Below, piece by piece: positions 252 to 63,300 of a stretch of 64,000 nt of DNA. Source of the stretch: Amoebophrya sp. A120 (taxonomy: Eukaryota; Protista; Dinoflagellata). Where the stretch lies: NCBI GenBank assembly GCA_905178155.1, contig CAJINV010000010.1, forward strand, positions 3,740,587 to 3,804,586. The letters are read 5' to 3'. The notes below the pieces were generated by a model. That model saw only the letters and a program-made list of their open reading frames with translations, was not told the origin of the DNA and made no database searches. Position numbers and translations under genes: made by a program. Each line of letters starts with the position of its first letter. The first letter of the stretch is position 1.

Positions 252-1907
252 CCAAGAGGACGGAAGCAATTTCGAGCAAGGTGCTGCTGGTCGTTATCCT
301 GAGTAAAAACGTACCCACACCAGAGTCAAGATGGGGAATCGGCTAGACAAATCCACAAGTTTTGTCTGTTTTGCATGACAAATTTGGATTCGTAGTATAG
401 TGCTGTTTGAGCTAGCTCAGCAGCATCACAGATCTAGCATACCATGCTGATTGGAGCATGACAAGTTGCAAAACACGACTAGAAAATGCTTCTCATGGAG
501 CTCAGCATGAGAAACATTTTCAGCATGCAGATTTGCATTACAACTCTGGCGTGGGTACGTTTTTACTCAGGATAGTCGTGTACCAGTGCACCTGCACCAA
601 CCCTACCCCATCGCGGCGGGACATCAACACGAGCCGGTGTTCGTTTCCGAAGAGGATCAGCATTCGCCGCCACCGGCACTTCAAGCGGATGTTGACAACA
701 CACCTTCCCACGCCGCTACAGCTGGCGAGGTTGAAAATAGTGCGGTATTATATAATCCCCGGGAATTACAGATCCCGATTCCGCAGGACGTGGCGGTTAA
801 TATACAGCGGGAGTTATTTTTGGACGAACAGGGAACAAGCGATCGCACGAACAGCTCGAGCAGCGGGAATCCAGCAGGCTTGGCGTCGTCGTGTCCATCG
901 ATGACGAATAACACAAGAACTTCATCCTCCACTTCCTCCTCTTCTGCCACTGTTTCAACAGACGGGAAAACAAGAATAAATGGTCTGTCTGTGTCTGGAA
1001 ATCCGACAAGTGCAGCAGCAGCTGAGCGTGGAGATGATCCTATCAACTCCCTCCAGTTGCAAGCGCAGCGGGAGACTACTACACGGGTGCGCGAAGGAGG
1101 TTATGATCTTCAAGACGGAAGGGAAATCGGAGTGGAGGATGCAGCTGACAAGGACGACTTGTCGCTCACAAGCACGCCAATACAGCCACGGGAGCTGGTC
1201 ATCCCGGATCCAACGAAATCGCTGCCAGCCGCTAGCAGTTTGATAGCAGCGAGGGCTGGGGCAATCATGAAAACTGACAACAAAAAGCAGGAGATCATGC
1301 CAAGAAGCACTTCTCGGGGCACAAAAACTTCTACTGCGCCCGACCCAACAACAAACCGCGGCGAGAATTGTAGTTCTGAGAAAAATGCTCATGCTGTGAG
1401 TTCATCTGGTGCAGCAGCTTCACATCACGTGCCACTGCAGCTTCCGCCAGATTTGCTGTCGGTCTCAGATAAACACACAGGAGAACGTATCGTGAGTAAA
1501 AACGTCCCCACACCAGAGTTGCAATGCAAATCTGCATGCTGAAAATGTTTCTCATGCGGAGACCCATGAGAAGCAGTCTCTAGTCGTGTTGTGGGATTTG
1601 TGATGCTAGAATCAGCATGGTATGCTAGATCTGTGATGCTGCTGAACAAGCTAAACAGGATTACACTGCGAGGCCAAACTTGTCATGCGCAGCAGCAAAA
1701 GCTGGCAGATTTGTCTAGCAGATTTCCCAGCTTGACTCTGGTGTGGGGACGTTTTTCCTCAGGGTAGAACGAGCTGAGGGAATAACAACCGAAGCATCCT
1801 CCAGTAGTTCCACCTGCTCTGCTAGCACTACTGATGATCATCTTCACGGCGAGAATGTTCAGCGGGAGAACTCGATGAGCACCAGGACGCATCTGGTACT
1901 TAAATAG
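1..1907 (+). CDS. 3' part of an intron-containing gene; Ser/Thr/Ala-rich low-complexity protein, function unknown
   Basis: Exons ~257-294, 580-1487 and 1772-1907 join in frame after removing the introners (..EQGAAGR|VPVHLH..HTGE|RAEGITT..HLVLK*). Stop TAG at 1905-1907; 5' end lies outside the window. Confidence 0.7.
295..574. mobile_element. Introner family A (non-canonical intron)
   Basis: TIR TATCCTGAGTAAAAACGTACCCACACCAGAGT at both ends; TSD GTCGT (290-294, 575-579); removal restores the frame. Confidence 0.95.
1488..1766. mobile_element. Introner family A, opposite orientation to 295-574
   Basis: TSD GAACG; internal sequence is the approximate reverse complement of 295-574; removal restores the frame. 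Confidence 0.95.
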
Positions 1908-1965
1908 AGAAAAAGTTTTTGATGTTGTATGCATCGATAAAGATGCTTCTCCGAGCCTGTGCTGC

Positions 1966-4900
1966 ATGGCAGAGCCTCCTCCTGATGAAACGAAGTAAGT
2001 ACTTCTAGCGCATGACAAACATGAACAAAGTGAAACTCCAAATAAACCTGAAATTTTTTCCCAAGGTGCCCTTCTTCTCGCGCACCCTGCACACGGAGCC
2101 GATCCTCGCTATGGCGTGTATGAGAGTTGTGCACAACTCCCCCTCCTCCTCGTTTGTCATGCAGAATCCGAAGTCCTATCGTTGCGTTGTGGCACGGTCT
2201 GCATGACAAATTCCGGGATCTGAAACAGTACTAGCGTAGGTTCAGCAACTTGTCATGCACTGGATCCACGTGTGCTGGTGTTTGTATTGGTATTCATGCC
2301 GCGCTGCAAATGGAAATGAGGGGGAGGGGGAGTTGTGCACTCCCATTGCGTGCAGCAGCGATTTACTCTCCTACAACTTGCCGGAAATAAGAAGAAGTGC
2401 TTCCAATGCAGAAGAAGTAGACGAAAGAACGTCTAGAACAGGAGAGCAAGACACAAAAACTAATGGCGAAAATCACACACAGACTCAGACCAACGACTCT
2501 GTCTACATCGTCGTGGGCGGCAAGAACGGGCTTTTGCTCATGACGAAAATCGAAAAAATCTTCTCGAACGACATCCACGTGCCGCAATCGGGCGACTTCG
2601 AAAAGGATTTCACGAAGTTTGTCGGGCACGAGAGGACGATTACGAAAGTGCAATTTGTCGCCGCGAGTAGCATGACAAATGTTGCCAGAGCCACCAACTC
2701 ATCTTCCTGTCAGAAGCAGCAGCTGCTCGACAAGGAGCAACTGCGGTTGATTTCCGTGGCAACGGACCGGCAGATCCGAATTTGGTCCTGCGCCACCGGG
2801 GAGTGCCTGCAGATCCACCTGGACTGGGGTATGATGCTCGGGACGGCGATCATTTTGCCGAACAGCAGCTTCCTGATGTACGCAAGCAGCAACCAGAAGC
2901 TACAGGTAGTGCTTTTGTTGCGATGCTCATGTAATGTTGATGCAATATGCTTACGTCAACTTGTTGTTTGTTGCGATCTTCATGTTATGTCTCGTAAATC
3001 AATATCTTTTTGAACAGAATTCAGAGTGGCGCCTCCACCTAGCAGCGCAAGTGAATTTCTGGTTGAACTTTCCTGGAAATAAGAATCATTGTGCAAAGTA
3101 CATGTACAACTCGCATCCATTTCTGTACCCAGGTTGTCGACATCTCCAAGGGTAGTCGTAGCGGTGGGAGTTGTACTAGCAGCACCGAAAGAGGAGCAGG
3201 AGCACAAGTCACGACGACAACGACCGCGAGCGCCGCTTCGGGTTCTTGTGAAAACAAACCAAATACTGCTGCTGAAATGAAAAAAAACGAGTCCACTTTT
3301 CCCCTGGTCCAGGTGTTGCCGTGCGATTACGAAACTTGGTGTCTCTGCCACGACCACCAAGCGGCGGTTGTGGCGGGAACGAAGAATGGCTGTTTGAGGG
3401 TTTTAGAGATCGGGAACGGAGAGGAGGATGGGGGGAGGGACTGGGAAGAGGAAAACGCCCGGTATTTTTCCCTTACAAAGTGACGACTCATCTCAAGCCT
3501 GCCACGACGTCATTATCATGCAGCTGCAGCATGATCCGGATTGGCATTTTCGATATCTTCGTTTTTTTGTTTTGAAGTGGTCTCGTCTCTTAATATCCAG
3601 TACTCTAATCGGAGGTGGTGTCTCGATCACTTATCAAATCGTGCTGAACATTCCACTACCAAACTAGGTCGACGTCCTCCCCACATCCAAGTAACGACCC
3701 CTCGACAACCGCCGCTCTTACCGTGAAAAATTCTTTCCGGTTCCCCATGTGCGGGTCGAACCGCGGCGCACCGGTGACCTGGTATTGTGAGGAAAAATGC
3801 CCCCAGCCCAGAGCTTGGGAGCATTTGTATCGCAGGCGTTTCGAATGGAAACATTCGCCTTCTTAGATGTATCAGCATCACAGATTTCCAATCGCGAGCA
3901 GCAAAAATGTGTATCGCAAAAGATTCCAGCAAGAGCTGCGTTTGTCATGCAAGCGGTGCTATTAAATACGACTCGACTAGACCCCGCATCAGAAAGATTC
4001 ATAGCTCCTTTCATGCATGACAAAAAGTTTTCATTTGGAAACTTCGCATCACAAATTATTGCAATTTTCGGGGTGGGGGCATTTTTCACTGTGATACCTG
4101 GATGACCTTCATCAGGACCGGTTTTGTTGTCTCCTTGGCGATATGCATCGCAAAAGTGTATTAATCGCACTAGTACACGTTGCATTTTCACATGCATAAG
4201 ATAAAGATACCGTTTGTCGTGCGTATTCAGGTGAGAAGGTATCTATGGTAGAATTTTCATGCAGTATGAGTATCGCAATGCCCATGGCGACGAGTCGTGC
4301 GCTAGTACTTTTGCACAGGATTGGCGAACGGTGTGGTGAATGTGGTGGACTGCATTTATAGCGGAGGATATGCAAGAAAAAAACTGTGTAAGTGTAACTC
4401 TGTAATGCAGAACATGCAACAGAGGCACGTCTGTCATGCCAGACAGCCAAAAGGTCCTCTTTTCATGTGTGTTTTCCCTTACAAACCACACATGACAGGT
4501 TTTTTCTGTCATGTAGAGCAAATTTGTGATGCTGTCATCCAAAGAAAGTTACACTAACACTTTTTTTTTCTTGGATAGAGGAGGATCTTCATCGCCTTGT
4601 TCATCAACCTCAGGATCGGGAACCGCAGTAAAAATACCATTACCTCCGGGAAGTAGAAGTAGGAAGAGGTTATGACAATGCACAACTCCCCCTCGTCCCG
4701 CTCATTTGTCATGCAAAATAACCAATCCACCCATTGCCTCTTGGCACTGTTTGCATGACAAGTTCTGGTAGCCCAAATACCACTACACTCCAGTGCAAAT
4801 TTGTCATGCAAAACCGCCATTCTTGCTGATGCTTGTACTGCCGTTCATGCTATGCAAATGAGGGGGAGGGGGAGTTGTGCACTGTCATAAAGGTTGGAAA

Positions 4901-7900
4901 GAATGCAGATTCGAACCAGTGTGAAAACGGAACAACCCACGAGACCCGTACCGCTCAAAAACTGTTTTGTGCCGAGGTACACATCAAAGACCGAACAAAA
5001 ATTTTTAGGGCACAGTGGTGTTGTCGGAGCAAAAAGTGAGTCGAACATTAGCAACACAGACGAGGAGGGCGAGAAAGCACCTCCAGAAGCACAACAAGAA
5101 GAAAAAACTGTTCTTGCCATTGCCACAACTACCGAGTCGTCTTCCGGCACGGCCCATCTTCCACCAGATGTGGAAAGCAGCGCTACCACCTCGTCTTCCG
5201 CGTCATCATGCGGTAACGCCGTGGACCTCCACGGGGAAAAAATAAAACAAGCCACTTCAACTACATCCGGAGAGCCGGAAGCTCGGCCGGAGGTAGTCGA
5301 GACGAATGTAGGAGCGGTTGTACAAGAGGGGAAAGGAAAAAATCCTGAGGCCGTTGAGCAGGTATCTTAATATCGTTCAGATTTTTTGCAGCAAAAATTT
5401 TGCTGCTTTTGGTTTTGGTTTCGATAGTCAGTGCATTGGGAAAGGCGCCGGTGCGTAGGCTTGTTACTGCACTTAATATGCAACACTTCAGTGAAGAACA
5501 AGATTTTTAGCAGCTGTCGTAGGAGCACCAGAGCGGACTTGCGATTCTACTGTGACACCGGTTTCTTGTTTAACTATCTCTTTGATCGCAGCTTTTGAAA
5601 ATCAAAATAACGCGTTTAGAAATGATAACGTGCAGGTGGCGGCTGTCGTTTCCGAAAGAACATCTTCGCCCGGCGCGCTTGCAGCGGAGGAGCATCTTTT
5701 TCGCGGTGAGAATACTGCCGAGGAGGAGGAAGTTGTGCTTCTGGAGGATGCATATACATTGCAAATGCGTCTGGGTCTGGAAGAATGCAAACTTGTCATG
5801 CATATTTTACATCCTCCATGAGGTCTGAAATGCAGGACCTAGCATGACAAGTTCTGCGAAATCTCGATCATGTCCATCCTGCATGACAATCTGCCTCTGA
5901 ACTTGTTCAAAAGTGGACAGCTTTTCGTAATCATGCAACACAAATTTTTGTAAAATCCAGACTTCGCATGACAAGTTGCAATCTTCCAGACCCGGACACA
6001 TTCGCAATTGATAACGCACCAAGCTGCAAGACCGCGGACGACCGCCGGCGCGTCGGGACCAGCGCGAGCGGTTCTGGAACTAGTAGCTGTAGCAGCTCGA
6101 ATTACAGTAACAGGGACATGATTTCCAGAACGCCCCGGCCTTTTGTGACCAGCGAGACCACGTTGAACAAGGAGATGTCCTCAGCACCACCACCAGCGCC
6201 GGGCAGCAGTGCAGCTACTACTATTGCGACATCAAAAATAGGCACCGCCTCGTCCAAACAAGGACGAGAGCAGCTGCCACAGCCAACTTCTGCTACAACT
6301 GGGGCACCTGTGGTGGAGGTGGTTCACGAGCAGTCTAGTTCTTCGTCTTCAGGTGCTTTACCTGGAGAGGGCGACCTCCACACAAAAACTGGTTCTTCAT
6401 CTGTGGATTGTTTACAACCAGCTACGTCGAAACAATATGCATTGCAAAAGTATCGTACTCGTATAAATGCATTACAAACAAGGTCCGAGCACGGGGACAG
6501 AGTCCCCGTGCGGCGACCTTCCGGCATTTGTCTGCGCCGCGCTATGGCACTGGGCAGGCAGGTCGCCTGCAGCTAGGTATCTCGGTGCGCCTTGCATTCA
6601 CTGACCCGCGACGGGCCTGCGCACGCGGCCCCCTTGCTTGCGCGCACTAGATTCTTTCATTAGCCTGCCGCGCGCAAAGATAAAAGAAAAGAAGAAACTG
6701 GCGCGCGCCGGGTCTGGAGCCGGCCCCGCGCGCCCTAGGTCATGACGCGGCGACAGAGTCCCCACACTGCCCTAGGGCTTTTCTATGCCCCCTCCATCCT
6801 TGGCCACGCGGTGTGGCGTCCGGGGAGTGTCCGTAGCTAGCCCCTAGGCCATGACGCGGGGACCGAGTCCCCGCGCTGGCCTAGGGCTTTCGCCCCTTGG
6901 CCGCAAGGTGCCCGGGAAGCGCCCACAGCTGGCCCCTAGGCCATGACGCGGGGACCGGGTCCCCGCGCTGGCCTAGGGCTTTCGCCCCTGCCTTGGCCAC
7001 ACCGCGTCCGGGAAACGCCAACAGCTGGCCCCTAGGCCATGACGCGGGGGCCGAGTCCCCGCGCTGGCCTAGGACTTTCGCCCCTTGGCCACACGGTGAT
7101 CGGGAAGCGCTCAAAGCTGTCCCCTAGGCCATGACGCGAGGACCGAGTCCCCGCGCTGGCCTAGGGCTTTCGCCCCTTGGCCGCACGGCCTCGCGTGACA
7201 GACTGGACTTCGGGCCCAAACCTCACATGGCAAAGTCCGAAAGTTTGGCCGGGGTGTGTCCGAAAGTCTGCCCGGGGTGTGTCTGAAAGTCTGCCCGGGG
7301 TGTGTCTGGGGTATGTTCGGACTTTTTGCCTGGGGTATGTTCGGGGGTCTGTCTGGGGTATGTCTGGGGTCTGTCTGGGGTGTGTCTGGGGTATGTTTAT
7401 ACCCCACCTGTTGGCTTTTCGGCAAAAAATTGTAGTCCGCTCGTGATTGAGGAGCATTTGCATACCCCTGACACACCCCCGAACATACCCCCGAACATAC
7501 CCCTCGCCTGCATTTTTGACCAGCTGCTGCAGTTTAGATAGTAATCTCCTCAGCATGAGAAATAAAATTTGTGATGTTGATTTACCTTAAGGAAAATATG
7601 CATGACTGCAATACGAGTGCGATACTTTTGCAGTTCATAAACAAGTAGTCACCGGCTACGCGATCTCCGGGTCCTGCGCCAAGGATATTTACATCATTCC
7701 GGTTTTCGACCAAGAGGACATGATCAGCCACAACGCCGGTGCTCCTCTCTTGATGGAAAGTCACAACGTAAAAACCCCACAGCATGATGAAGAGCAGCAC
7801 CTCCACCACGGGGCGACGATGGGCAGCACGAGTATCAACTACACTAGAAATAAAACTACTGAGCCAGAACGAGCGAAGTTTGGGTTTACCTGCGCTCAAC

Positions 7901-9630: not shown

Positions 9631-9770
9631 ATCAGACTAACGCTCGCGTGATTTTACTATAAATTAGTCGCAATCATGCACTTTTCGTGATTGGCGCAGG
9701 TAAGTAGTTTATTTCTTGACGAGACAGAACGCGCCATCAGCGTCCTGTCTAGAAACATCAAACGCACGCA

Positions 9771-11405
9771 ATGATGTCTGTGCGCCCGTTGCTCTTCAGC
9801 ATTTTCTGTTTCGCCGGCCCGTGCCTTGCCGCGGTCCCGGAACCGGCCCCGAAAAGACGCCGGGTACAACGTGGCCAGGAGCAACATCCGGGCCTCCCTT
9901 TAGACCGTGACCCGGAAGAACCGGCCCCGGAAAGACGCCGGGTACGTGGCCAGGAGCATCCGGGCCTCCCTTTAGACTGTGACCCGGAACCGGCCCCGAA
10001 AAGACGCCGGGTAGGCGGCCAGGAGCATCCGGGCCTCCCTTTAGACTGTGACCCGGAAGAACCGGCCCCGAAAAGACGCCGGGTAGGCGGCCAAGAGCAT
10101 CCGGGCCTCCCTTTAGACTGTGACCCGGAAGAACCGGCCCCGAAAAGACGCCGGGTAGGCGGCCAGGAGCATCTTCCGGGCCTCCCTTTAGACTGTGACC
10201 CGGAAGAACCGGCCCCGGAAAGACGCCGGGTACGTGGTCTCCCTTTAGACTGTGACCCTAATATAGCGGCCCATGTTTGTTCGTATCTGGTTCTGCATCC
10301 GCTGCACGCCCTTTTTAACGCCCTGGCGACCGGACGACGGGCACCGGGCTCGCGCTGGCAACCGGATACGGAAGAACATTACCGAGAGATCGATGCAAAT
10401 GTTGTGCGTCTGAAGGAACGCTCCTGGGGAGGGTTTTACCAACTGCTGTGTCGTGGCCCCGAGCTGCAGGCGCCCGCCCTTCGCGGTGCTAGTAAGCTCT
10501 TTCGCGAGGTGCTAGTAAGTCCTGAGGTCGCGCGCACCCTCCCGAAGATGGGTTTCGCCAACCAGCTGTTATCCTACGTGCAGCCGGAAGATCCGTTTTT
10601 CACTCTGGAAGAATTTTCCTCCCCGTGTACACCACCACAGGGGCGCCCCCTATACATTCCCTACTGGATTACACCACGACCGGCCCTAGATGACACTTTT
10701 CGGTATTTTCTGCATCTCTTGGAAGACGCACTGCTGCGCGCGCCAGAGCAAAGCTGGACTGACGATTATCAAGAGGAGGACTTCATATGCATTGCAAATA
10801 TGCAGCCTGAGAGGTCTGGAAACTTGTGACGCAAATCTGGGAATGGTGGGCGCACCGCAATACGTAGCCAAGCACGACAAGTTTTTGAGCTGCTCCTGCT
10901 ATGTAATTCGTTTCCCGCGTGCTGGCAAACCGCGTTTTCGCATGACAGGCAACAGTCCCTTATTTTCCCATCCATGCATCACAGATTTAAGAGCCATGCC
11001 ATACCATACCATGCCAGACAACCATGACAAACGTGCATTTTTCCAGACCCAGACATAAGTATTTGCATTTGATACTACAGTGACCCGCACGGCGTTACAC
11101 CGATTCTTTATCTCGACCTTGCGGGCCGATACCATGGGCCTAACAATCTTGGCTTCGGTAAGCTTCGCATATTCACAAGGCGTGTGCCGCTTTCGAGCGA
11201 CGACAAGCAGAAGCTAGCAGGCTGGGAATGGGACGAGAACAACGGCTCGAACATAGTGCCCGGCGTGAACATAGTGCTTCTGCCCAATGCGCCGAGCCTC
11301 GTTGTGTGTGGAAAAATCAGCGGTCCGGATCGCGAAAACCTGTACTCTCTCGCGTTGGAAGTACAGCAACGGACAGAGGAAGCGACCGTGGCTTTTCGTT
11401 GTTGA
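9771..11405 (+). CDS. Secreted protein with 6 NLS-like repeats and an F-box-like motif (candidate effector), 2 coding exons
   Basis: Signal-peptide-like MMSVRPLLFSIFCFAGPCLAA; six PAP(K/E)RRRV units; LPLDCDPNIAAHVCSYL; join EEDF|SDPHG across introner 10786-11074. Probable 5'-UTR GT-AG intron at ~9700-9753. Confidence 0.75.
9836..10258 (+). repeat. Coding tandem repeat, about 72 bp x 6
   Basis: Unit encodes PEEPAPKRRRVGGQEHPGLPLDCD; length variation preserves the frame. Confidence 0.95.
10786..11074. mobile_element. Introner family C, shared with the paralog
   Basis: TSD CTTCA/CTACA; homologous copy at 17025-17303. Confidence 0.92.
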
Positions 11406-23000: not shown

Positions 23001-26000
23001 CCTGTTCGCCCGTGCCGCAGGTAAGGCACAAACGGTCCAGCCTCCCCTGTCTGGGCGGGGTTGCGGCTTAGGGGAGAGTCTCGCCCCTTAACCCAAAGGG
23101 GTGCGTCGTCTCTTCCGTGAGAACAAAAACGTAAGGCGTAAAATGGGTCGGGTCCTGGATCGTTCTGTATGTTGGGCTGTCGCGCCCGGCTTGCTGGCCG
23201 GGCTGTGCTGATCAGGTGTGGTGGGTAGCTCCCGACTGGTTGGTACTTTTCTTGGGGCGACTTGCCGTGGTAGCGCTCGGCTTTTGTATGATGAGGTCGC
23301 CGAAAGTGCTTCCTCGCCCACCCCCCCGGGGAGGGGGTCCTTGACCTGTGGCGCCGGGAGCGGGTGTCCACTACATGATGATGATGATGCGCATCCCCAA
23401 GACGAGAGGCATTTATTTTCAATCGTGTTTTGGCATTTGTAATGCTGCAAACAGGAAGATAAGCGATAAGGGGAAGGCTTTGTCATACGGCTGCCCTTGC
23501 TAACCGGCACTAAAGTACAGCGAGAAACTTGTCATGCAGGATTCCCAAAACTTCTGGATTTGTGTTGCAGAGATTCCAGACCCAACTTGACTATGGGGTC
23601 GGGACCACGTTTTTACTGAGGATATCGTCCTCCGCATCATCTTCCGAGAGAACCGGTGCGGATCATGACGGGGGACAAGCTCCTCGTCCTCCTGACGATA
23701 ACACTATCAAATGCAAATATGTCTGGGTCTGGAAGAAAGCAACTTGTGATGCGTCCTGCAGATGCCTCAAAAATTTGTCTTGCGCGAGTAGCACAAAGGG
23801 CCCACTTTTGCCCACCCTGCAGCGTTATTTGTCATGCGGGATATGCATTGCAAAGCCCTTGCAAAACCTGTGATGCTATACCCTGCATCCGAATCGAATC
23901 CTCGAGGTGCATCCAAAATCTGCATGACAAACTCCTGCACTCATCCAGACCCAGACATATTTGCAATGCATAACCACGAGCGAAGTGGGCCGCGTCCGGA
24001 AGGCGGGAAGTAGCAATAGTCCTTATGAAAAGGAAAAATACCCCCTCCCCATATCAAAACGAAGCTTCTGATGCAGGATTTGCGAACACAAATCAGAATT
24101 GTCCTGCTGGAGAGGAATGCAGGCCCATGCTAAGCCTAACTAGAGAGGTTTTGGCCTAGGCGTGCAGCATGAGAAACGTCCGCGCTGTAGGCCCATCAGC
24201 ATCACAAACCGCCTGCACAATGCTGCGGAGCTTGTGGAGTTGCCTTCTTGCAAGACACACGTGATTTGTGGTCTCAAATCAGCAACACAAATTTTCGGAA
24301 GCATACCGCTTCGATATGGGGAGGGGGGATTTTTCCTCTCAATAGTCCTCGCGATGGAACCTCCTCCACTTCTGCTGGAGTGCGGGACCAAGGTCGTAGT
24401 CCTGCTTCTACCAGCTCCCTAGGCTCGTCCTCTTCCGCCGCTCGAAATTCACGCGGCGAAGGAGGAGAAAGCGGCTCGCTGGTACGTGGGGGTCGAACTG
24501 CTGGCGGGGCTGCACCGCAGAACAATTATCCAGATGACCTAAGCGACTCCGATAGAAGTGCTACAGATGCAAGAACTTCATCCGGGATGAATAAAATGGC
24601 ACACAAGAATTACAGTGAGGAAGAGGCCCATGCAACGAGCGACTATCTCCCCTTCGGCCCCATCCCGATTGGCACGGTGCTGCCGACTTTTTTCTTTTAC
24701 GTGTGTCTCGGCACGCTGCTCGGTCTCTGGTTCACGCGCACGCGGCCGGAGCGGCGAAAGTACGGGCGAACCAACGTCGAATTGTGGTACATTATCGTCC
24801 ACAACGGGTGCATCTGCTTTCTGTCCGCGCTCGCGTGGCTGAAGAAATCGAAAGAGCTGGCGCTGATCACCTTTTCGCTCGAAGTTTCCTACGAGGTGTT
24901 TGACAGCCTGCTGCTCTACAAGCGGTTTCGTAAGCTCGATCACGAAACGCTGCTGCACCACGTCGGGGCGCCGCTGTGTATTCTCTTCTCCATATTGTGG
25001 GGAAAATTTCCCCCTCTTCATATCAAAAATGGAAATTTGTGATGTTGATTTGTGGTCACAGGTCGACTTGTATTGCTAGAAGGCCAAGAGACGCAGTTGT
25101 GGCCTCGTTTGCAGGCAATTGGCCATGCTCTTTCCCACTTCCAGCTGCCTCCTATGATGCTGAAGATGCAAGGGCTTAACACGCCACCCAGCACTACAGT
25201 CCGCATCTTTTCCCATCTAGCATGACAAAATGAATTGTGTACACAAATCCGGCATCACAGACTTCGATTTTGATACGGGGAGGGGGGAATTTTTCCTTTC
25301 AATACTCCACGCAGACCAACATCGACTTCCGAATTCTGTTATGCATTGCAAACATGTCTGGGTCTGGAAGAATGCAAACTTGTGATGCGCATTTCACAAC
25401 GCGTGAGAATCTCTCATGCGTAGGCAGCAAAAGCTGCCCATTTTCTGTGACCAAAGTGGGGAATTTGTCATGCGGATTCGGCATTGCGGAAGCTTCTCGA
25501 AACCTGTGATGCTAGAGCTTCCACGCCAGACCTTCTGTGTCATGCAAAAGCAGCATAGCCACTCTACTCTTCCAGACCCAGACATATTTGCACTTGATAT
25601 CTGTGTCACCTCATGATCTGCATCGACTTGTCCGGGGCGATACTGGCGTTCTCCAAACTTCTATCGTGAGAAAAAAGTGTTACAGTTACACACTGTAATG
25701 GAAGACAAGCAAGACAGACAACCTCATTTCGTGCGTGTTTTCCCTTGTTATAGTCTACGCATCACAGGTTTTCTTTGCCATGTCGAACAACAACAACTTT
25801 GTGATGCAGAAATTCCAACACATGTCGTGTAAATGTAACACTTTTATTTTCCTGTGATAACTTCTGATGCGGACCGGCAAGCACGCGCTGGCCAAGGTGT
25901 ATCGCCGCCTGTTCTACTTCTACCTACCCCTCCGGATATCCTGTGCAAAAGTATCGTACTCGTATACTTGCAATCATGCATTACAAATTCTTTTTTTTAG

Positions 26001-26549: not shown

Positions 26550-26739
26550 AATAGAACTAACAAGAAACCTCGACCAGGTTTTTATGTTTGTTCTCCATGC
26601 ACTCGACGGCGTCAAGACTGGTGGCGTAGTTCACGTGCGGACTACTTGTGGTGAGATGTCTATGTTGTTTCACAACTCTATCTTGCGCAGCAAGAACACT
26701 ACGTCTGATAGAAGTAGAATTTTTGAAGGAATCAAAATC

Positions 26740-35700: not shown

Positions 35701-38700
35701 AAATGTTTTGCGCCTGTTTTGTAGCGGATGAACTTTGTTTGAAGTTTGGCAGCCCAGCGATGACCTGTTTCTGATTCCACCCCGCGCGATCCTCTTAGAA
35801 ATGCCCTGAAGGCTGAGCTTTCCTAAATTTTCTCGGCACACAGGCAGTGTGATCTCAAAAATCAAGTCCGTAAGCGATCCCAGGTTCCGGCCTCCTCTGA
35901 AAATAAGCACGTCAGTGTCGTGGTGTGATATTGATTTCGTTTGATTCTTTTGCTTTTACCCACAGTCCGATGGCTAGCTAGTTAAAATCCCCTTGCGCAG
36001 TTCGAGTTTTGCAGTTACATAGATAGATATTTTTTGTTGGTGTCCATGCTCATCTTCAAGTAGATATTGGCTTTCGCTGCTTTCCTCCGGTTTGACCATG
36101 GAAGACGATAGTGAAGATGATGTTGCGCCAAATATGGGCGAAATTTCTGACGTCGCAGTCAGTGTGCGGGCGGCGCGCAGTTTGTGCCTAGCTGGTCGCG
36201 CATCGCGGGCTTTAAATGGGTTCGCGTTGAGGGTGGGGTGCGAGTTAGGCGGCCTGCAGCTGAGTAGTAACAACAGTCAGAAAGCAACTGCGGGTGCCTA
36301 CGCGGGAGCGAAGCCGGTGGACGACAGACAGGAGGACAGGCGCTTGGGGCATTATGTTGAAGATTTCCGCAGGACCATGTTTGTGGTCCTCCAAGCGTGC
36401 GAGTTCGAGATCTTGCGAGCGCGGTACAGTGATAGTGGTGGAACCCTTAAGCCTGTGAAAAACCTTGAGCCCCAACCACGTACTGCGTTCAATTTGCATG
36501 ATTAGGTCGCATCTCCCCCTCCCCGATAGTGAGCGCAGAGGTGCAGTTGGGCTCCAGGTTTTCCTTTCATAACGCTGTCCACGCACATCGAGTTCGACGG
36601 CACACCGCTGCGGGTCTTGGACGGCGCGCAGCACCTGATCAACACGGAGAGCTTGCTGGTGCAGCAGAACTTCACTTTTTTCCGCAAGGGGTCTCATGGC
36701 GTCGGTGGGCCCGCTGGCACCCCCGGCAGTGGGCGGCAGGTTTTTTCGATGTGGCTGATGACCAACATGGCCCGAATGGAGCATGGACACGAGGCATCGC
36801 AGGTCTACGCGGCTTTGCGGGAGCGAACTTGGCACGTTTCGGACGTGTCTCGACTGGCCATGGCCGACAAGCTTACCTACACCAACTACGTCTGCGACGG
36901 TGGCTGCGACAGCGTGGCCCGACACTATTATGCTTGAAGAAAATTGATCTGGTGGAAGTTTGTCATGCGTGCTGTGCATGACGTTCTTTTTTTTTTGTCA
37001 TGCGGACAAGAGCTACTCTGTACGTGAAGACGCATGATAAAATACGCATGACAAACTTTCCCCAGCGCAGTTTTTCCTTGCAGATAAATGTTTTCGAGCG
37101 GCACGACCATGTTGGTGGAGAGCTAGGGGGCCGGGAAGGGCAGAAGACGGCGATGCATGTGCTCCAGGACTTGTATGCCCGCCAGACTTGCGCGGTGCAT
37201 GCTTATCACAATAGTTTCCTCCATCCGTTCGGCGCTTACATCGGGACCGAAGATCGCAAGAAGGCAGCGGCGAGAATATGCAGGGCGTTGAGGCGTGGGA
37301 GAGGTGGAATTCTTGAGTCCCTTCCGAGTTGGGTTGCGTGCAACTTCATCGGTGGAGCAGATTATATGCATTTGAAATCGAGCAGCTACGACAGGCGCTT
37401 TTGCGCGTCAGCATTTCCCCCAGCTGAGAACAGCATGACAGCACGCACAAGCTCCTGTCGTAGCTGCTCGCTTTCAAATGCATCGCTGACGACCTGACCA
37501 ACAACCCGACGGAGCATGAGAAATACAAACAAATGGTGGAGATTCTCTTTCCAACCTCCAGCCTGACGCCTTCTTGCAGAGCAATCAAGACCGAAATGTT
37601 GCAGCTGCAGGTGCGCGCACTGGGAAGCGGTGTTTTGGTTGCCGCGGTCGACGATGAGGCGAGGGTGTGCGATTTCCTGGAGAGCGTCTGCTCCATAAGA
37701 GAACTGCAGTTGCAGAGATTCGCCACGCAGGTGAACACGTGCAAGCGGCTGGCGCTCTTGAATGTGGTCAACATCGTGCCGGGGGCAGCGCAGCACACCC
37801 TGAACAACAGCAAACGAACTTACCACCTCTCCGGAATCCATCAGGCCCACCTGCCGCTTTCGGAGTTTCTGCAATTTGCCTGGCTGGCAGCGGCAATGGA
37901 CCACTTCGACCGGGGTTGCGCGAACCTCATGGGGCCACTGGGAACAATTGATGGGCTGGCGCAGTTAAAGCAAAAATTGGCAGTCGAGCACAATGACTTC
38001 CGGGCAAAGAAGTTGCGAAGTTTTTTCTTCCCCTACGCTGTGCAGGTCGGGGTCGATGCCGGTTGTCTTGCCCAGCGGGCAACTGATGCTGCGGAGTCGA
38101 CAATGGCGATGCTGCAGATCAACCTATTCAGCAGGCTGGACGTCTTTCCCTTCGTTGCCATCCGGGGCGGCCGCAGCGCAGAGCAGGTGCGTGACTTGAT
38201 AAGCAGAACGGACGACGAACTTCTCGACACCGGATTCAGCCAAAAAATCAAAGCACTTCATGAGGCGGGGCGCCTGGACAGTGGCAGCGTGTTGACTTCG
38301 CTCGAAGATGTTTTGCAGCTTGCGCGGCTGCACCGGATCCACACAATGAAGACGGAGCGCGCGCACAACCACGGCGCAGCTTTGGCAAGGCGATTCCGAT
38401 TGGGACACAGCGAGGTGAACGCCCTCGCCAATCTGCAGCTCTACAAACAGCATAATGGCCTGTCGGGAGTACCACTGGAGCCGCCGCCGGACTTTCCTTT
38501 GCGTACTTTGGAAGAAGTGCGGGAGAGCGTACTAGCAACGAAGGCCTGCTCTCAGGTTCGGGCAAACACTGTCGGTTTTGATGGCGATGGAGTAGGCAAG
38601 GCGACGGGGTTCCGAGCTGGTCAGGACAATGCGAAAAGGCGGACTGCGCAGTATCGCGACAGACCCGAGGAGGAGAAGATAGTGGCGGCGTTGCGGGTGC

Positions 38701-41700: not shown

Positions 41701-44700
41701 GGGGGACGGGGGGAAAGGGCCGCGGCCTCCTGTGTCGTTGATTGCCCGCGGGCAATCAGCGAGTGCGCGCGGCCTTCGTTTGCATGCAGTGGCCACGGGT
41801 CCGGGCGGCCGGGGGCATGTTGCCACCCGGGTGCCGCGCCGAGGCTGGCAGCGCAAGAGGCCTGGGCCCGCGTTGACGTGTCCCGCGTCCCGGGGCGGGC
41901 TTGCCGCGGCCTTTTGTTTTCTCGCTTGGTTCTGCAGTGGCCTGCGGCCGAAATTAAAATTTGAAAATTGCCCCGGGTTTCGGGGGTAACTCCGCCCTGC
42001 GCGAAACATCCGAAGTGCATTGCCTCTGGCCGCCACGGGGAAGGGTTGATTCCTACCCGGGGCGACGCGCTTCTCGGGCGTTCTTGGGGGATCGGGCCTT
42101 TCTCGCTTTTGCTTTTGCTGCCCTGTGTGCAGAGTAGTAAACCAGCAAACAGTAGCATTGCAAGCACACACCCAGAGTAGTCATCTTGCCAAACGCGTAA
42201 TAAACCCGCAACAACAGAAGGCCGCAACGTCTTCCACTACAGCGGCAGCAGTGCCGGTGCGGCAACGGAGCCGCACCGATAAGAAAATCCCCTCCGACAC
42301 GAAGAAGCTGCACGACGAGGCTTGGCGGAAGTTGCAGCGGAAGAACTACGACCTGGAGTGGAGTTTCGACAGTGATCGCTTTAAGATCGTAACGTGCAAG
42401 AAAACCTACAAAAACATGGTGGAGCTCCTCGCGCAGGGCATGAAAGACAAAAAAGACGCCATGGTCCAAGGGCAGGGGAACCAGGGGAATGCTGTTACGA
42501 CCTTGGCGCTGCACATCGACCGAGAAGTTTGGGCCAACATCCGCGAATGCATGCAGGAAGACCGGGACAAGCAAAACGCGATGAAGACGGGAACTACTGT
42601 TCTGGACAAAAAACCAGTCCGCGACGAAATTGCGGACTGCATGATGGAGAGCACCGTCGGGGATATCTTCGAGAAGTATTCGGAATTTGCTTGCAAGCAC
42701 GCCGAGCAGCTGCTGAAGCTGCCGCGTGTGACCGGCGATAAGGACGTGGATGATGTTTTGAAACTGCAGGCGAAGATCGACGAAAATTCGATGGTGGTTG
42801 CTTCTCCCGGCGGAATTTTTCTTAGCCCGCACCAGTCGGCTACTGGCATCACGTCTTCATCCAGTAGCTCCAGCATGCAGCAGCACCCCCGCGTCAAGAT
42901 TGAAGACCCTGACTCCATCGAGAATGATTTTGAAATGATGGGCCAAGACGACTACTACGACGACGACCTTTACGACACCGACGGGAGTCTGCGGCCCGGG
43001 GTTCCGGTCCACCCCAAGGGCAACGTCGTGCCGTTCGAAGCCGGGATTATTGACGAGGATGACGACACGCTGATGGACATCAACATTTCCGCGACCCCGC
43101 CTACCGCAGGGGCCTTATCTCGCATTTCTGCGAAGCGTGGCCCGGGATTGTTTTCCAAGTCGTCGTCGTTCCCCACCTCCACGGCGACCGGCAACACGCA
43201 GAAGCAAAGTTTCTCGGCGGAGACGCTGTTGGCCACCCCGGGATCCAAAGCTGGACGAAACCCCCCTCCTGTGCCGAAAAGCGAAAGCACCAACCCCAAG
43301 ACTCCGGATATCCATGCGAATGCTTGATCATCAGGCCCACTTTTGCGATGTTCATTCTTTTTGCATGACAGATTTGACAAGTCCGAGTAGCTTCGCAAAA
43401 GTGCCTGCGATCACGTCCTTCGGGTTCTATACTCTACGTGGTCCGGGGAAGTGATTTCCTGTCGAAGCTCAAGGCCATGGCGAAGACTCCGGCACAGGGG
43501 CAGGCCGAAAAAAGCATGGTCGTTGAGGCCGATGTCAATCCCGATACTTTTCCGTTTTTGCACAAGGGCGAGGTGGGCGATGATAAAAACGGAATTTACG
43601 GCCATATGATCCGCAGTCCGGGCAAGATCACTGAGCAACTTTGGTCGTACGGGGCGAAGATGGTGGCCGCAGCGAAAGGTAATTTGTTTCGCAGCAGACC
43701 GCTCCGTATCAGTGATGCCATTTCCAAGGCGCATAGCACTAAGCAAATTAAATCTGTTGAGACCGACCTTCGCGAAGAGAAACGCGCGACATTATTTCAA
43801 CGCTTCGCATGACAGATTTCGACTTGAACTTCCAAAATGTGTGGCTTCGCTCATCTCTCCACCATCGAAATTCAGGTCGTGCTCCGGATATGCAGGGTTA
43901 CAACCACTTTGCGAAGGGAATGAGCGCGGCGGTCCTACCCTATGTGAAGCAGCACAAGATGAGCATTTCGGAGATCCTTGACCAGTATTTTTTTCGTAAT
44001 CGCCTCGATATGCCTATGGGAGTGCAATCTTGAAGGCCGGGCGTGCCGTCATATTTTTTGCATATTTGAGCCCCTGCTTCGGGAATGTTACATATGATGA
44101 CGTGGCGGAGTCTCTTTTGCATTTGTGACATTTCATCGCATCCCCACCTACACTCGAATAACAGATTCCACGAAGTATTCCTGGCTACCGCTCCCAATGC
44201 TGCGGAAATCACCAAGGTGCTCATGGACCTGTTTTTGGAGCTTAAGGAGGAGGACCCGTCCCTCGTCCTCAAGACAACCGACCTGCTGCCACACCTCCGG
44301 TCGGAGCATATATCAGTTGGAAACTGGGGGTGATTGTGTGAGCTCTTTCATGCATTTTGTGCAGCTGGGGCCTGGCGCTGCAAGACAAAAAGCATGAGAG
44401 GCGCACTCTCATCTTCCTGTTTGAAAATCATACAGCCTCGTGAAGATTGCGGCCGCGAGCAAGAAAAAACTCGAGTTCGAAACTGTCCTGGACAGCGTGG
44501 TGACGATGGCGAGTGGGAAAGGGGACAGGTTCGAGATTATGGAAAAGGTGAATGTGGCTTTCAACAATTCGCACAAGTTTATGCGGATCAATTTCGACAC
44601 GCTGAAGGAACAGCTCAACACGATCCCCGCGGCCGACCGTTTGAAGCTGTCCTACTACACGGCTTTTTACGAGAATTGCAAAAGATTTCGAGTGGTGCCG

Positions 44701-47700
44701 ACCAACTTCTTCTACAAAAAATATGTTTTGCGGGATACCGAGGTGGAACTGCCAGTATATGCATTGGAAAAACGAAATCTTTGGGAGTTTGTCATGCGTG
44801 TTTTCGTTGTGATGCGCTTTGATCCGCAGGCTGTCATGCAGGGTTTGCAAGTCTTCGTAGACTCCTTGCACAAACGCCATGACAAACTCCTCCGGGTTTC
44901 GTTTTTCATCGCATATTGGTGACGACCATGGCATCGACTGCTTGAAGAACTTGATTTCCAAAATGACCAAGTGGGACACTTCTCTTTCCAATTCCGGCAG
45001 CTCCTTCGACGTGTATAGACTATGTTTTTGCCTCTGGTTTTAGTAGTGCGCATGTCTGCCTGTGGAGTTGGCTTCATTCCTCGATGTTGAGATGATTTGC
45101 ATGCAGAAGGACCGCCTATTTTGCGCGCAACAGGGCAGGCTCTGTTGCTTGTTTTCCAAATGTCAGTGTGCACGCGCCCCCATCTTGGATGGGAGGCGGG
45201 GCGGCATCACGTTGCTTGAAATGCATTTCAACAACTGACCAGGTTCACCTTCGCCAAGAAGATGGAGCGCGCGCACAATTCCCTGCAGGACGACATCGAC
45301 CACGCGAACGCGGAATTGCAGAAGAAAAACGACTTTCTCTACGCACTTCTGGAGTCGGCCGATGTGCAGGCGGTCGAGGACATGTGGACGGAGGGTGGCG
45401 ACTACGACGAGACCCGGAAGGAGTTTCTCGATTTTGTCAAATCTAACGATTATTCGGATATGCGGTCCCAGTTTCAGTACGGAATGGACGGGTCGCCCAT
45501 CAAGAACTACATCAACAACATGATCAAGGACTCCGAAACTCTGAAAACCGAGGAAGAAGCGAAGGCGGCGTTGCAGCTGCTGCAGAAAATGAAGGATCAG
45601 GACACCCTCGATAACAGTACTTCTTTTTGCTTTTGTACCTAGCGTGTCGCCTACCCTTTTAGCTACGCAGCACTTGTTTCGCATGACAAACTGCCACTTG
45701 CTTCGTTTCCTACCTTGCGTTGTCATCGCAATTCCCAATATCAAAATGCATCACAGGCAACGACATGGTGAAAAAAACGATTTCGGATCTGAAGCGAATG
45801 CACTTCCTCCTCCCGGCGGCGGAGCGGGCGAAGTTTCAGGCCTTGGACGAGCATTGCGCAGCGACGGCGGCGGAGAAGGCCCTGGAGGCCAGGCGCAGGA
45901 AAGGTCGTGGAAAGCTTGGAGCCTTGTGACGGTCTTCTGCGAACGAACTAGACAAGAACTTTTACTAACATTTGAACGCGATCAAATACACGATGCGAAA
46001 AACTGATGGACTGTGACCGAACCGATGGACAGCGATTGGCCGGACACTGCGAAACTTTCTCTGACTTCAAAATGAACTGCGCAAGGGGATTTTAACGAAA
46101 GTAGCTAGATTTTGCCCGTCCTGTGACCGGCTTCGAAGTACCTGTTCGCGCTTGGTCATGTTGTGGCGTTTTTCGTGAGCGGTATGGTGATGCTTCCATT
46201 GGTCCGAGCGAGCTTCGTGCACGAGAGAGAGTTGCAGCCTGCGTGCGACTGCAGGCGGCGTGCCAGCATCTGAGGCAAACCCGGGCCTGCGGCGTTTTGG
46301 CCATTTCTTGCCCTTTCCATTTTTTCGCACGTGCTTGCTTCCGGGCTTCTTCGCAGTCGTTTCCTGTTTCGTGGGCCGCCGCTTCTTTTTGCTGTCTATT
46401 TTTTGTCTAATTTGGGTGCATTGGCTTGTCTAATTTCCGGGCTGGGGGTGTCTATTTTCTTTCTATTTTTTGTCTAATTTGGCTGGGGCGATTTTCATGT
46501 GCGATTTCCCTATGTATTGAAAACACCCCGAAAAAATAGGCGAAAAATAGGCATTGTGGGTGGGGGCGCAGGGGCGGTGAGGTGCCTCCGCCCGCGCTTT
46601 CTCTGGGCCGGGCTTGGCCCGGCGCGCACTGGCTTGGGCCGAATCAGAATTAACCTCGATTCAGGCAGTCGCCCGCAAGGGGTGGCGCCCAGCGAGAGAC
46701 CCGAGATGAAGACGCTATCGTAGCCCTGCAAGAGGAAATCCGCAAAGCGCGGGAGGAGGAAGAATCAGGGGAACCGCTCGCGAAAGTCACCCACGACCAC
46801 TACATCCGGACTTGCAGCGAGGAACTCTCCAAAGAAACGACGCATCGTCTGGCCGTTTCAGCATCACACATCCTCGCGACGCACCAACCCGGCGAACCAC
46901 AGCCAGTTTTGAAGGGCTGCGTCGCGAAGTGGACCATGGGCCCGAACGAGGAAGCTGCAGCTGCCCGTCCGATTGAGCTTAACCGCTACAACGAAATCGC
47001 CATGGATTACCACGTGGAGGAAGCAATTCGAACCGACAAGGACGAACCTTACGGCTGGCAGCAAATCAATGGTCCTGCGGGACCGCCGCGCATCATCTCC
47101 CCTGGGTTTCTTGTGAAACACGTGAAGAAGGACAAAACCACAGGGAAAATGAAGCCAGTCCGCCGCAAGCGCATCGCGATCAATTACCAGCTGCACAATG
47201 TAAAGACCAGGGGCTGTGCGTGGGTTCCAGTGCAAAATACAAACCTCTTCTACAAAAGCCGGAAGCTCAAACTCGTGCGCGACGCGTACTTCGGCTTCAG
47301 CACGTTGCGAGTCAGCTCTAAAACGTCGGCGCTCGCTGCGTGGTCAACAGGACTACGAAAACGTCCTGTCATGCGACCAAAACGATGCGGGCTCGGACCG
47401 AAGCAAAATCCGAATAACTTCTCCATGCGAAGCGAAACAGCGTTCGGGTGGCAGCAAAATGCGAAAGGAGAATATAACACCCACGCGTTCATGGACGATG
47501 TGAAAAACAGCGGCGACGATATTCAAACCGAAGTCGCGGGAGCAGTCTTTGCATCAAAAGAAAATGACCACTACCCGGCGCTGCTGTGCGACAGGGAAGA
47601 TTGGGAAATCGATTCCGAGCCGGACGCCGAGTCAGAAGAAGAAGCCGTGGACTCCGGGCTTCCGCTGGATCCGAAAATGCACGCGAAATTCCGCCAGGAA

Positions 47701-58082: not shown

Positions 58083-58280
58083 ATTGAGGCTCATGGAGAT
58101 CTCCCCACCGGGCGATCATCCAATCGGGAAGCAAAAATGATCAGGATGAAATTTGACAAATTTTAAAGATCGCTATTAAGTACTTACTTTTGTCGGTTGC
58201 TCTACCGCGGACAGAGTGCAGCATCAAATGCGACGTAATTTTTGCTGCACTTCTTTGCCTGCCAAGTCTTCCTTTCGACT

Positions 58281-59857: not shown

Positions 59858-60324
59858 CAAAAACATACAAGATTCCTCGTCCTGGATGTACTTCGAGTAA
59901 GGAATGTATAAATCAAACGCGAGATCCACCTGATCCCTCAGTCGACTTTCGAGAGTTCTGCTCGCTCGGGGTAGTTGAAGGTCAATACAATACAACGGGG
60001 AGGAAGTTGGACAACTAAAATGTTGCGTAACAAAAAACACAAACCTTCGGCACAGACACAGGACAAAATTTTGCTTTGTGTTACTTTCAAGCTATTTCTT
60101 TGCGAGACACCTACTGATCGGTCTACGAACTGCAAAAGGGTATAGCGAATTCATCTTCTGAAGCTGTAATTGCTCATTATAAAAAGACAAACGCCGCCTG
60201 TGTCAAGACGCTCTTCTTGACTTCTTCTTTCCCAAGCATTTCACTACTCATACAATTGTACTTTATCTGCTGCTGAGTCGTTGTTTTTTTCGTTGAATTA
60301 CTTTCAGAAAACATAAACATCATC

Positions 60325-63300
60325 ATGGTCTCCGTGGTCTTTCGTCGCGTGCTTGCCGCTGCCGGCAGCATGTCCGTCTACTTGCACGGAGAAGCGGTTC
60401 TGAAAGGGTTGCTGGGAGGTGGACATCGAGCCACTTTCTCGGAAATAACCAGTCTTCGGACCATGAGCAACGTGTTGAATGTTGGCCAGCACTTTGACGT
60501 TCATCCGGGCCTTGTGGTTGCCGTCCAGTTGCGGTCCCGGCCGGGAAGCAGCGGCGATGGGAAGAACTGGAATGGTAAAAAGCAGTCGAAAGGAAAGGGG
60601 CGGGGTCGGGGGCGAGGGGACGACGGCGGCAAGGGTGGTGGAAAAGGAAAGGTGGAGAGCTGCAACGTATTACAATGAAAAACGATCGTCCCACGACGAC
60701 CCCAGACGTTTCAGATATTTGTGTATGCATATTAAGGTTTTCAAATGCAAAACTCTTTACTTATCAATCTATGCATGCTTGGATCGGAAGACTGCCCCTG
60801 CTACTGCTTTCGATTGTTCTAAGTGTGCAAAGCAGCTCTTACACTACAAGCCCTCCTTGTGCTGGGCCTTTTTGCAAGACAAATTTTTGCTATCCTGGGT
60901 TGAACATTTATCGTCATGCAAATGAAAGGTCGCAAATGTTTCCATTGGTAACTTTGCAATACAAACGCTTCCACATTCTGGCGTTGGGGCACTTTTCGTT
61001 GTAATACAACGGAGATCCTAAGAAAGACCCGTGCCACGAGCGCTATATTTCGAAGCTACAGACTTACGCAAACACAGGCAATATTGAGGGCGCAGAAGCT
61101 GTTTTCAAGCTCATCCAACGAGACGCACACCTGTGCTTTACTGCCATCCACTACGACATGCTGATCAGCGCCTACGCCAAAAGGGGCCTTGTTTGGGGCG
61201 CAATAAATGTTATTCAGAGGATGCGCCAAGAAGAAAACATGGCGCCGACTGTCGTCACCTACAAGTCTTTGCTGACCTGCTACGCCAATGCGGGCAAACT
61301 GGAACGGAACTCAGACAGCACGCCAGAGGCTGTTCTGTCTGAGATGATGGAGTGCGACGGGGTGGCGCCGCATGTCGTCCTGAGGACGCTTCTGAATGCC
61401 TACGCTGAGAGAGGCAACGGCCCGGGCGCAGACCGTGTTTTCCGAATAATGAAAGACGCACCAGGCCCGGCGCCGGATGTCGTCACCTACAACATCCTTA
61501 TCAAAGCCCACGTTCGGAATCGCGACGTTGATAGCGCATACGGCGTGCTTCAAATCATGAGAGACGCACGCGCGGCGCCGGACGTCCGCACCTACACCGC
61601 GCTAGTGGATGCCTGCGCTAGGAGTGGCAACGTTCGGGGCGCATACGAGTTGTTTCAAATGATGCAAGACGAAGGCGTGGCGCCAAATGTCGTCACCTAC
61701 AACGTTCTCATAGCAGCCCACGCTCGGAAACGCGACGAACGGGGTCGTGCATGGGATGTGTTTCAAATGATGACAGACGCAGGCGTATCACGAGAAAAAA
61801 GTGTTACAGTAACACATTTGTTGGAGTTTCTGCATCACAAATTTTCTCTGCGTGGCAGAGAAAACTTGTAATGCGAAGATCATAAGGGAACACAGGAAGG
61901 AAACGAGGCTCCCAAGCATTTCCTGCATGAGAGAGGTTGTCTGTGTTGCCGGTCTTGCAACACAATGTGTAACTGTAACACTTTTTTCTTGCGATAAGGC
62001 GTGGCGCCGAATGTCGTCACCTACACCTCGCTTATCCTGCGCAAAAGTATCGTAGTCGTACTAATTGCAAATATGCATGACAAATCTCCTTCCTAAGGTA
62101 AAACAGCATTACAAATTCCACTTTTCTTCTTGCCAAAATTTGTGATGCAATTTATACTAGTACGATACTTTTGCAATGCATATCGCTAGTGGATGCCTGC
62201 GCTAAGAGTGGCAACGTTCGGGGCGCATACGATGTGTTTCAAATGATGCAAGACGAAGGCGTGGCGCCGAATCTCTTCACCTACACCGCGCTGCTGGGTG
62301 CGCACATGGACGCGGCCGCCGCGGAAAACGACAAGAAAATCCGTGGCGACATTATCCGGGATATTCTACTTAAAAACGTACTTACCCACCCCATAGTCAA
62401 GATCGGGAATCGGCTAGACAAATCCACAAGCTTTGGCTGTTTCGCATGACAAATTTGGACGCGTAGTGCTGTTTGAGCTAGTTCAGCAGCATTACAGATC
62501 TAATCTCTCATGCTGATTGGAGCATGACAAATTTCAAAACACCATTAGAAAATGCTTCTCGTGGGGCTCCGCATGAGAAACATTTTAAGCATGCAGATTT
62601 GCATGACAACTATGGCGTGGGGACGTTTTTACACAGGATACGGGACGGCATTGGCCAGCTGCTGGACTTGATGCTAAGAGCCGAAAATTGGAGGCCTAAC
62701 GATGCTTATGAAATGCGAATATGTCATCTGGGTCTGGAAGGTTCTTGCAACTTGTGATGCTAAATCTGAATCACGCAAAAAATCTGTGTTGCATGTTTAC
62801 CTACAGCCGTCCTTTTTTACCAAGTTGAGAGGGAATTTCTCATGCAGGATAGGCATGATCGAGATCTCACAGAATTTGTCATCCTAGGTGCTGCATTCCA
62901 GACCTCATGGGTCATGGAAAACCTACATGACAAATCTGGCATCCTTCCAGACCCAGACATATTTGCACTGGATATTGCTACCTTCCGAAGTATTTTCCAA
63001 CGCCAGTATGATAGGATGGGCAGGACAGAGGAGGCCAGGAAGCTGGTCCGCGAAATGGAGTATCAAGTGCGAATGTGTCTGGGTCTGGAAGATTGCTGAG
63101 GTTTGCGATGCAGTGTCTACTGCGTGGCCCAGTCCCAGAACATCCGCCACGCAAGTCCTAGCGTCACAGGTGTGCCTGAGACTGTTTCTTCAGGCCTAAT
63201 CCGCATGACAAATGCCTTCTGTTTTTGACAGCAAGAAGAGGGACTTTTGCTGCCCAAGCATGACAGATTTTTGGGTGATCTAAAATCTAAATGTGCACTA

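Follow-up and report, generated by a model that had tools for sequence, protein, structure and literature searches.

The window considered here is a stretch of 64,000 nucleotides of Amoebophrya sp. A120 (contig CAJINV010000010.1, positions 3,740,587 to 3,804,586). Its genes, among them a WD40-like gene and a PPR gene, contain GT-AG introns and short elements that are Amoebophrya A120-type introners: the inverted-repeat pattern, the short direct repeats at the borders and the removal from mRNA without GT-AG are all present. Our subject is a motif, GCAT(G/C/T)ACAAA, which recurs inside these elements and is found in ordinary introns as well; an earlier note on this DNA proposed that it may be bound by an intron-defining factor rather than by a transposase.

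In the list below, sites are matches to a motif profile trained on element interiors, and bits are profile scores. Splicing was read from gaps of contigs from RNA-type runs, the RNA type of the runs being putative; the raw reads of one such run contributed next to nothing (69 partial reads). The mask of element DNA covers 10,271 of the 64,000 bp and was partly set by hand.

295..574, + strand: introner of the 279-bp family with five sites, all GCATGACA on the RNA strand; an RNA-type contig piece starts at 575 and has 256 nt more upstream
1488..1766, + strand: introner of the 279-bp family, reverse in orientation to 295-574; five of its six sites lie on the opposite strand; RNA-type contigs skip it
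1896..2065, + strand: GT-AG intron; motif at 2010 (14.9 bits), weaker site at 1964
2119..2347, + strand: introner of the 216-bp family, three sites
2906..3132, + strand: GT-AG intron, no site
3462..3667, + strand: GT-AG intron, no site
3783..4096, + strand: introner, five sites
4142..4322, + strand: decayed introner of the 150-bp family; 5-bp duplication intact, no site of at least 9 bits; a 281-nt gap and the single frame require its removal
4369..4577, + strand: introner of the 209-bp family, four sites
4671..4889, + strand: introner of the 216-bp family, three sites
5362..5635, + strand: GT-AG intron, one weak site (7.9 bits)
5753..6013, + strand: introner of the 262-bp family, six sites
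6436..7639, + strand: introner of the 150-bp family enlarged by a tandem-repeat insert; skipped in RNA
10786..11074, + strand: introner of the 252-bp family; it lies in a duplicated gene and represents one insertion with 17025-17303; sites mutated
14558..14836, strand not assigned: 279-bp element with perfect terminal inverted repeats, six sites; not within any long reading frame
17025..18208, strand not assigned: three elements (17025-17303, 17569-17882, 17944-18208), four to six sites apiece
20174..26374, + strand: gene region; eleven copies or half-copies of elements, from several families
27003..27158, strand not assigned: decayed element-like stretch, single site at 27091; candidate intron only
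27293..27557, strand not assigned: element of the 262-bp family, six sites; past the RNA-type contig of the preceding gene
36929..37086, + strand: TAT..ATA element of 158 bp, old; sites of 19-20 bits at 39 and 40 bp from the ends; two mismatches in the duplication; candidate intron only
43309..43431, + strand: old element-like stretch with one 21-bit site; candidate intron only
44758..44915, + strand: TAT..ATA element of 158 bp, old; site at 39 bp from the left end, duplication gone
61786..63352, + strand: five introners of the PPR gene

Two putative RNA contigs skip the inserts of the WD40-like gene, and their gaps of 178, 281 and 118 nt all fit a model of 13 exons with one reading frame and a single terminal stop, interrupted by eight TAT elements and four GT-AG introns. 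The earlier note knew three of the latter (2906-3132, 3462-3667 and 5362-5635), and these indeed have no exact copy of the motif; the contrast it drew with GT-AG introns was nonetheless mistaken, as the fourth, 1896-2065, holds the motif, and the 178-nt gap in the two contigs fits its exons (1772-1895 and 2066-2118). The stretch 1996-2060, taken for a decayed intron, is in fact the 3' part of this intron. The other introns described as decayed or lacking terminal inverted repeats (TIRs), namely 27003-27158, 36929-37086 and 43309-43431, are bridged by no RNA-type contig, and 36929-37086 does have TAT..AAAA at both ends. Across 26380-46379 the contigs gave no junctions, but their coverage within the LTR retrotransposon-like element described below is too sparse to bear on splicing.

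The element set was drawn from the window and from 687 kb (the window aside) of a related public assembly (JACKZZ01 contigs), that is, from 125 loci fetched by one TIR pattern and then merged (named L001-L078). Because they were picked by the TIR of one family, the loci exceed the average of the genome in element content. Window and loci have families in common and share a 98% repeat; the nearest relative of the topoisomerase II of locus L045 is that of Amoebophrya sp. A25 (71%). The TAT ends were part of the search rule and the AAA was not. The 683 elements kept (with 0, 1 or 2 mismatches in the 5-bp duplication in 519, 129 and 35 cases) share TAT...ATA ends and this duplication, and their terminal counts give an inverted repeat of TAT, seven variable bases and AAA; an exact 5-bp repeat accompanies 521 of the 792 candidate TIR pairs and a 4-bp repeat only 5. 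Subfamilies of at least four copies, 24 in number, take up 585 of the 683, and about 11 groups have no BLAST link between their interiors. The families called unrelated in the earlier note are so in their interiors, but the end pattern and the 5-bp duplication are common to all. Features of miniature inverted-repeat transposable elements are present as well (TIRs, a duplication of fixed length, no coding capacity, many copies). Since the duplication length and the end pattern are single, we infer that a single machinery mobilises every family, as these data suggest. The 22 open reading frames (ORFs) of the window contain no transposase or integrase besides the integrase of a long terminal repeat (LTR) element, and the duplication mismatches drift toward GT or AG at no position. 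Two TIR patterns had zero matches in viral contigs; the loci matched by motif-pair patterns (17, 36 and 42) are scattered among viruses and prokaryotes, mostly at background density, with a few at 1.2-2.8 per kb.

The motif in elements and in ordinary introns

The recurrence in both directions reported by the earlier note is borne out: the window has 54 exact copies (29 on the + strand, 25 on the - strand), whereas 0.6, 0.7 and 2.6 are expected under Markov models of order 0, 2 and 4, with a maximum of 6 in 30 simulations each. Element DNA houses 44 of the 54, and the exonic copies noted at 2670 and 31064 are both present. The motif is real but wider than the ten letters first given, as the profile reads GCA(T>A)(G>C>T)A(C>G)A(A>G)(A>G)TTT. 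Sites of at least 10 bits number 2991 in element interiors and 35 in shuffled interiors, and the density is 16-19 per kb inside elements against 0.4-0.7 outside. The LTR retrotransposon-like element at 27634-58037 has one 17-bit copy of the motif per LTR.

All 24 family consensuses bear two to seven sites, the outermost lying 34-62 bp from the element end, at distances unequal at the two ends (e.g., 39/47, 40/48 and 39/45 bp). Most families have their outermost sites facing outward and some inward; in two groups all face the same way. Of 32 gaps between adjacent same-strand sites in 14 family representatives, 21 measure 31-33 bp, and 12 of the 14 have such a gap, whereas 5000 draws of the null gave a mean of 2.0 and never more than 10; all same-strand distances taken together are most coherent at a period of 10.4-10.5 bp; the pair spacing and this period therefore point to phasing along B-DNA.

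In the 497 elements with a gene-strand call, the sites are divided between the RNA strands as 1015 vs 1125, elements with sites on one RNA strand only number 44 vs 46, and just 5 elements have no site. A factor binding single-stranded RNA fits poorly because of this balance, and the restriction to one strand that an RNA splicing signal (a branch point or an enhancer) would need is not seen. The two members of the 279-bp family at 295-574 and 1488-1766 lie in opposite orientations, and both are skipped in the putative RNA contigs.

Ordinary introns were predicted by a gene finder on 47 loci (374 kb; strand call present, longer than 3 kb) from which the elements had first been removed. Predicted short GT-AG introns without element homology hold 2.60 sites per kb (46 sites, 0.7 expected), compared to 0.31 in intergenic DNA, 0.43 in long introns and 0.08 in exons; the enrichment over intergenic DNA has p=4e-12. 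Among the unique GT-AG introns of up to 300 nt, 36 of 74 have a 7-bit site (3.9 in shuffled sequence) and 22 of 74 a 12-bit site (0.55 in shuffled), and the motif is the top de novo 7-mer of unique introns (26 vs 2). The sites occur on both strands (15 and 23), and 5 of 10 gaps are 31-33 bp. Three of the unique introns, in the topoisomerase II gene, are confirmed by contiguous homology. Site-bearing introns have no duplication in register, with ATA there in only 1 of 26 and AAA in none, share the phase bias of site-free ones and have no extra length; the site density is the same once end-like introns are removed, and no site stands at a set distance from either splice site. Looking for an end-like site anywhere in an intron was confounded, as the motif itself resembles the end pattern, and the paralogous intron pairs of L039 and L064 have too few strong sites for comparison. 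Introns with a site more often end in TA-N-(C)AG, mostly TATCAG (10/26 vs 3/38, p=0.004).

Rates of change were counted on trees of families with at least eight copies; raw singleton counts undercount variable columns. The ratio of core to background change is 0.14 (0.11-0.18) on 498 internal branches and 0.39 (0.36-0.44) on 555 terminal branches, with 0.56 on the shortest of them; the inner TIR has 0.37 and 0.66, respectively. Terminal branches overstate protection because they include unsampled transposition. Copies in reading frames and other copies are kept alike (0.39, n=408, and 0.35, n=77). In copies with mismatched duplications, the excess change is 0.85% (0.16-1.58) in the core, 1.02% in the background and 1.32% in the inner TIR, which places the core at about 0.83 of the background; the terminal TAT, a part of the search rule, has -0.2%. 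Outermost sites are kept better than inner ones in both age classes. The motif is thus guarded mainly during transposition; some selection after insertion as well is possible. The statement that the motif outlasts the TIRs and the duplications is correct insofar as sites persist in old elements with decayed duplications, but in older copies its decay rate is indistinguishable from that of the inner TIR or of the remaining element sequence, and decay at one rate with the TIRs was named in the earlier note as contrary to its proposal.

Readings of the motif

At the RNA 5' end, TAC accounts for 9 of 15 TAT variants, and the mirror change at the 3' end for 1 of 14 (p=0.005); by position, the 497 oriented elements have 1, 2 and 12 changes at the 5' end and, in mirror order, 9, 3 and 2 at the 3' end (p=0.0005). 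Predicted canonical donors are GTAT or GTAC, and the tolerance of TAC at the 5' end, which hints where the spliceosome reads the elements, resembles a GTAY donor. It is likely that the spliceosome reads the first bases of an element as a donor, and intron definition would therefore sit at the ends and not at the motif. Splicing may rest mostly on two features of these ends, the TIR hairpin and a donor-like TAY; the motif would at most add redundant help.

We tentatively propose, with a probability of roughly 0.45, that the motif is a binding site in double-stranded DNA for one protein, which is probably host-encoded and likely needed by the shared transposition machinery. The basis for this is the shared ends, the arrays, the spacing, the strand neutrality, the conservation contrast and the enrichment in unique GT-AG introns. 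Such a protein would bind the motif in phased pairs, on one helix face and at both element ends, and, by analogy with the internal sites of P elements, might help to bring the ends together. Its everyday sites would lie in intron DNA, and new families would therefore converge on the motif while the rest of their sequence is free.

Several points weigh against this proposal. The binding protein is putative, and no transposase or integrase domain was found in 131 long ORFs of the loci, which cover less than 1% of a genome. The 31-33 bp interval was picked only after the profile scan had been seen, and the 14 representatives amount to about 11 BLAST-unlinked groups, 9 of which have the pair. The GT-AG introns of the loci are gene-finder predictions, three of them confirmed. 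The 262-bp family (F1, F2) is skewed in its orientation to the gene strand (55 vs 26, p=0.002). Core change on terminal branches is below neutral, also on the shortest ones, and with the duplication as a clock the post-insertion core rate is 0.54-0.94 of neutral, a range in which selection after insertion is possible. Finally, after simulated decay of 30%, 37% of the elements keep a site, and 35% of GT-AG introns have one; because of this match, relics of introners may explain part or all of the GT-AG intron signal.

The last point leads to the strongest alternative, which we regard as possible although doubtful: a plain transposase site, the site-bearing GT-AG introns being old introners of extinct families with acquired canonical ends. 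The arrays anchored to the ends and the conservation contrast agree with a transposase site, and a few of the predictions, in L042 and L060, are evident relics. The figures of Farhat et al. 2021 (PMC7789003) imply that about 45% of A120 canonical introns are strain-specific, near the 43-49% with a site here, and the same source gives inverted or direct repeats in 15% of canonical introns. The simulation at 30% matches the TIR score as well as the share of introns with a site. However, decay without selection down to the TIR score seen (25-30%) predicts about 1.0 site per kb, whereas 2.4 are seen, and for strong sites 30% decay leaves 0.29 per kb against 0.94. Were relics confined to the strain-specific half, a site would be needed in nearly all of them, which corresponds to decay of about 15% and a TIR score of 10.8 rather than the 7.0 seen. 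The ends out of register, the phase bias and length like those of site-free introns and the density unaffected by removing end-like introns also argue against relics, and Farhat et al. (PMC7789003) detected no transposase in A120. The eightfold density in unique GT-AG introns relative to intergenic DNA and the persistence of sites after the duplications have decayed make the motif probably more than a family-specific transposase site; to this extent the earlier note is supported.

Its other half, an obligatory intron-defining signal, is not. Such a factor would be a DNA-bound protein that marks introns during transcription and replaces the missing U1, with redundancy masking the loss of single sites, and we consider it distinctly unlikely. 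The enrichment of introns over intergenic DNA, the near absence of site-free elements, the sites still near-perfect in old elements despite decayed duplications and the report of U1 as undetected in A25 and A120 (PMC7789003) are in its favor. Against it, the motif is absent from some spliced introns, although a splicing signal would be needed in every one: the element 4142-4322 is skipped in putative RNA with no site of at least 9 bits, three of the four RNA-supported GT-AG introns have no 9-bit site, and half of the predicted ones are site-free. The motif lies on either RNA strand, and its distance to the splice sites is not fixed. Selection on lineages that transpose exceeds that after insertion and is not stronger in reading frames, and the core accumulates nearly the age excess of the background, whereas the terminal TAT has none.

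A broader version, rather unlikely in our opinion, joins both roles: a host protein would mark intron DNA via phased GCATGACAAA pairs and aid a spliceosome without U1 in locating introns during transcription, and dozens of unrelated transposon families would have converged on its site for mobility and splicing. If so, this convergence is what let transposons invade exons. A role at the RNA level, as short helices prolonging the TIR hairpin or a site for an RNA-binding protein, is very improbable: pairing with another site is predicted for 74 of 128 site-orientations, and UGUCAUGC is in slight excess on RNA (p=0.018 under independence of sites), but families with one-strand sites mostly leave them unpaired and have insertions in both directions (29 vs 18, p=0.14), the letters themselves are kept across families beyond pairing, many GT-AG introns have a single site, and the spacing fits B-DNA.

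The proposed double-stranded DNA site ties transposon biology to host intron biology by its presence in ordinary introns: the motif would be either the mark of a host factor exploited by the elements or a fossil tag by which canonical introns could be dated as former introners. As a phased 10-bp site common to the families, it also offers one bait for the missing protein of introner mobility.

Neighbouring elements in the window

The LTR retrotransposon-like element at 27634-58037 has 491-bp direct repeats (95%) and a 2181-aa frame with an integrase zinc finger. Within it lies an 11.1-kb insert (35569-46695) with short inverted ends, a 6-bp duplication (GAGACC) and two genes with introns, neither matching a Pfam family above the cut-off; for its 873-aa ORF at 37464, searches gave neither a Pfam family nor a homologue of comparable length. 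The insert is a candidate for an unclassified DNA transposon. In the duplicated gene (9630-12070 and 16265-18845), the exons, 75-81% alike, have diverged more than the shared introner appears to have. At 21402-23624, an element of the 279-bp family is interrupted by a 1.9-kb insert, the end of which matches L045 (98% over 576 bp). An 864-bp perfect inverted copy in L016 (4563-5427 and 14928-15792), coding-like and at the locus end, is perhaps an assembly artefact.

Comparison with known systems

The closest system is that of the A120 introners described by Farhat et al. (PMC7789003) as non-canonical spliced introns of about 240-260 nt in many families, with inverted repeats of TAT, seven variable bases and AAA and direct repeats of 3-5 nt. 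The end pattern, the direct repeats and the missing transposase are alike here; the differences are that the repeats are uniformly 5 bp and that an internal motif is added, whereas the available part of the paper gives end motifs only. No family-level link accounts for mobilisation there; here, one architecture is common to the families. That source leaves the question of how Amoebophrya moves thousands of introner families and splices them, as neither a transposase nor U1 was detected. Neither half of the motif occurs in its text supplement, although figures S19-S25 might show internal sequence; the portions of PMC12130899 and PMC11282704 at hand name no such motif, and among the papers listed in literature searches, one of them with the motif letters, none showed it in introners. 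A phased motif common to families, and its presence in canonical introns, was thus not found in print.

Sites of ApiAP2 proteins (TGCAT/TGCATGCA), upstream and palindromic according to the section of PMC4117751 used here, resemble the motif in their GCAT core and in belonging to an alveolate, but the ACA(A/G)(A/G) half is absent from them; AP2 domains are linked elsewhere to integrases and homing endonucleases of mobile elements (PMC4117751). An AP2-domain protein as the binder, suggested by this likeness of letters, is only a lead.

The ends of the Drosophila P element have 10-bp protein sites within the TIR at unequal spacing, and a host factor, IRBP, binds the element too (PMC7776569). The likeness lies in internal 10-bp sites, here putative protein sites, spaced unequally at the two ends; the P element differs in its 8-bp duplication, one site per end and known THAP transposase, as given in the available text of PMC7776569. 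The elements studied here have a 5-bp duplication, two to seven phased sites, no transposase found and sites in ordinary introns. The ends of hAT, CACTA, Tn7 and Mu elements also contain short repeated sites in both orientations, on which the transpososome is assembled. Those subterminal repeats are family-specific, whereas the motif reported here is common to families with unrelated interiors.

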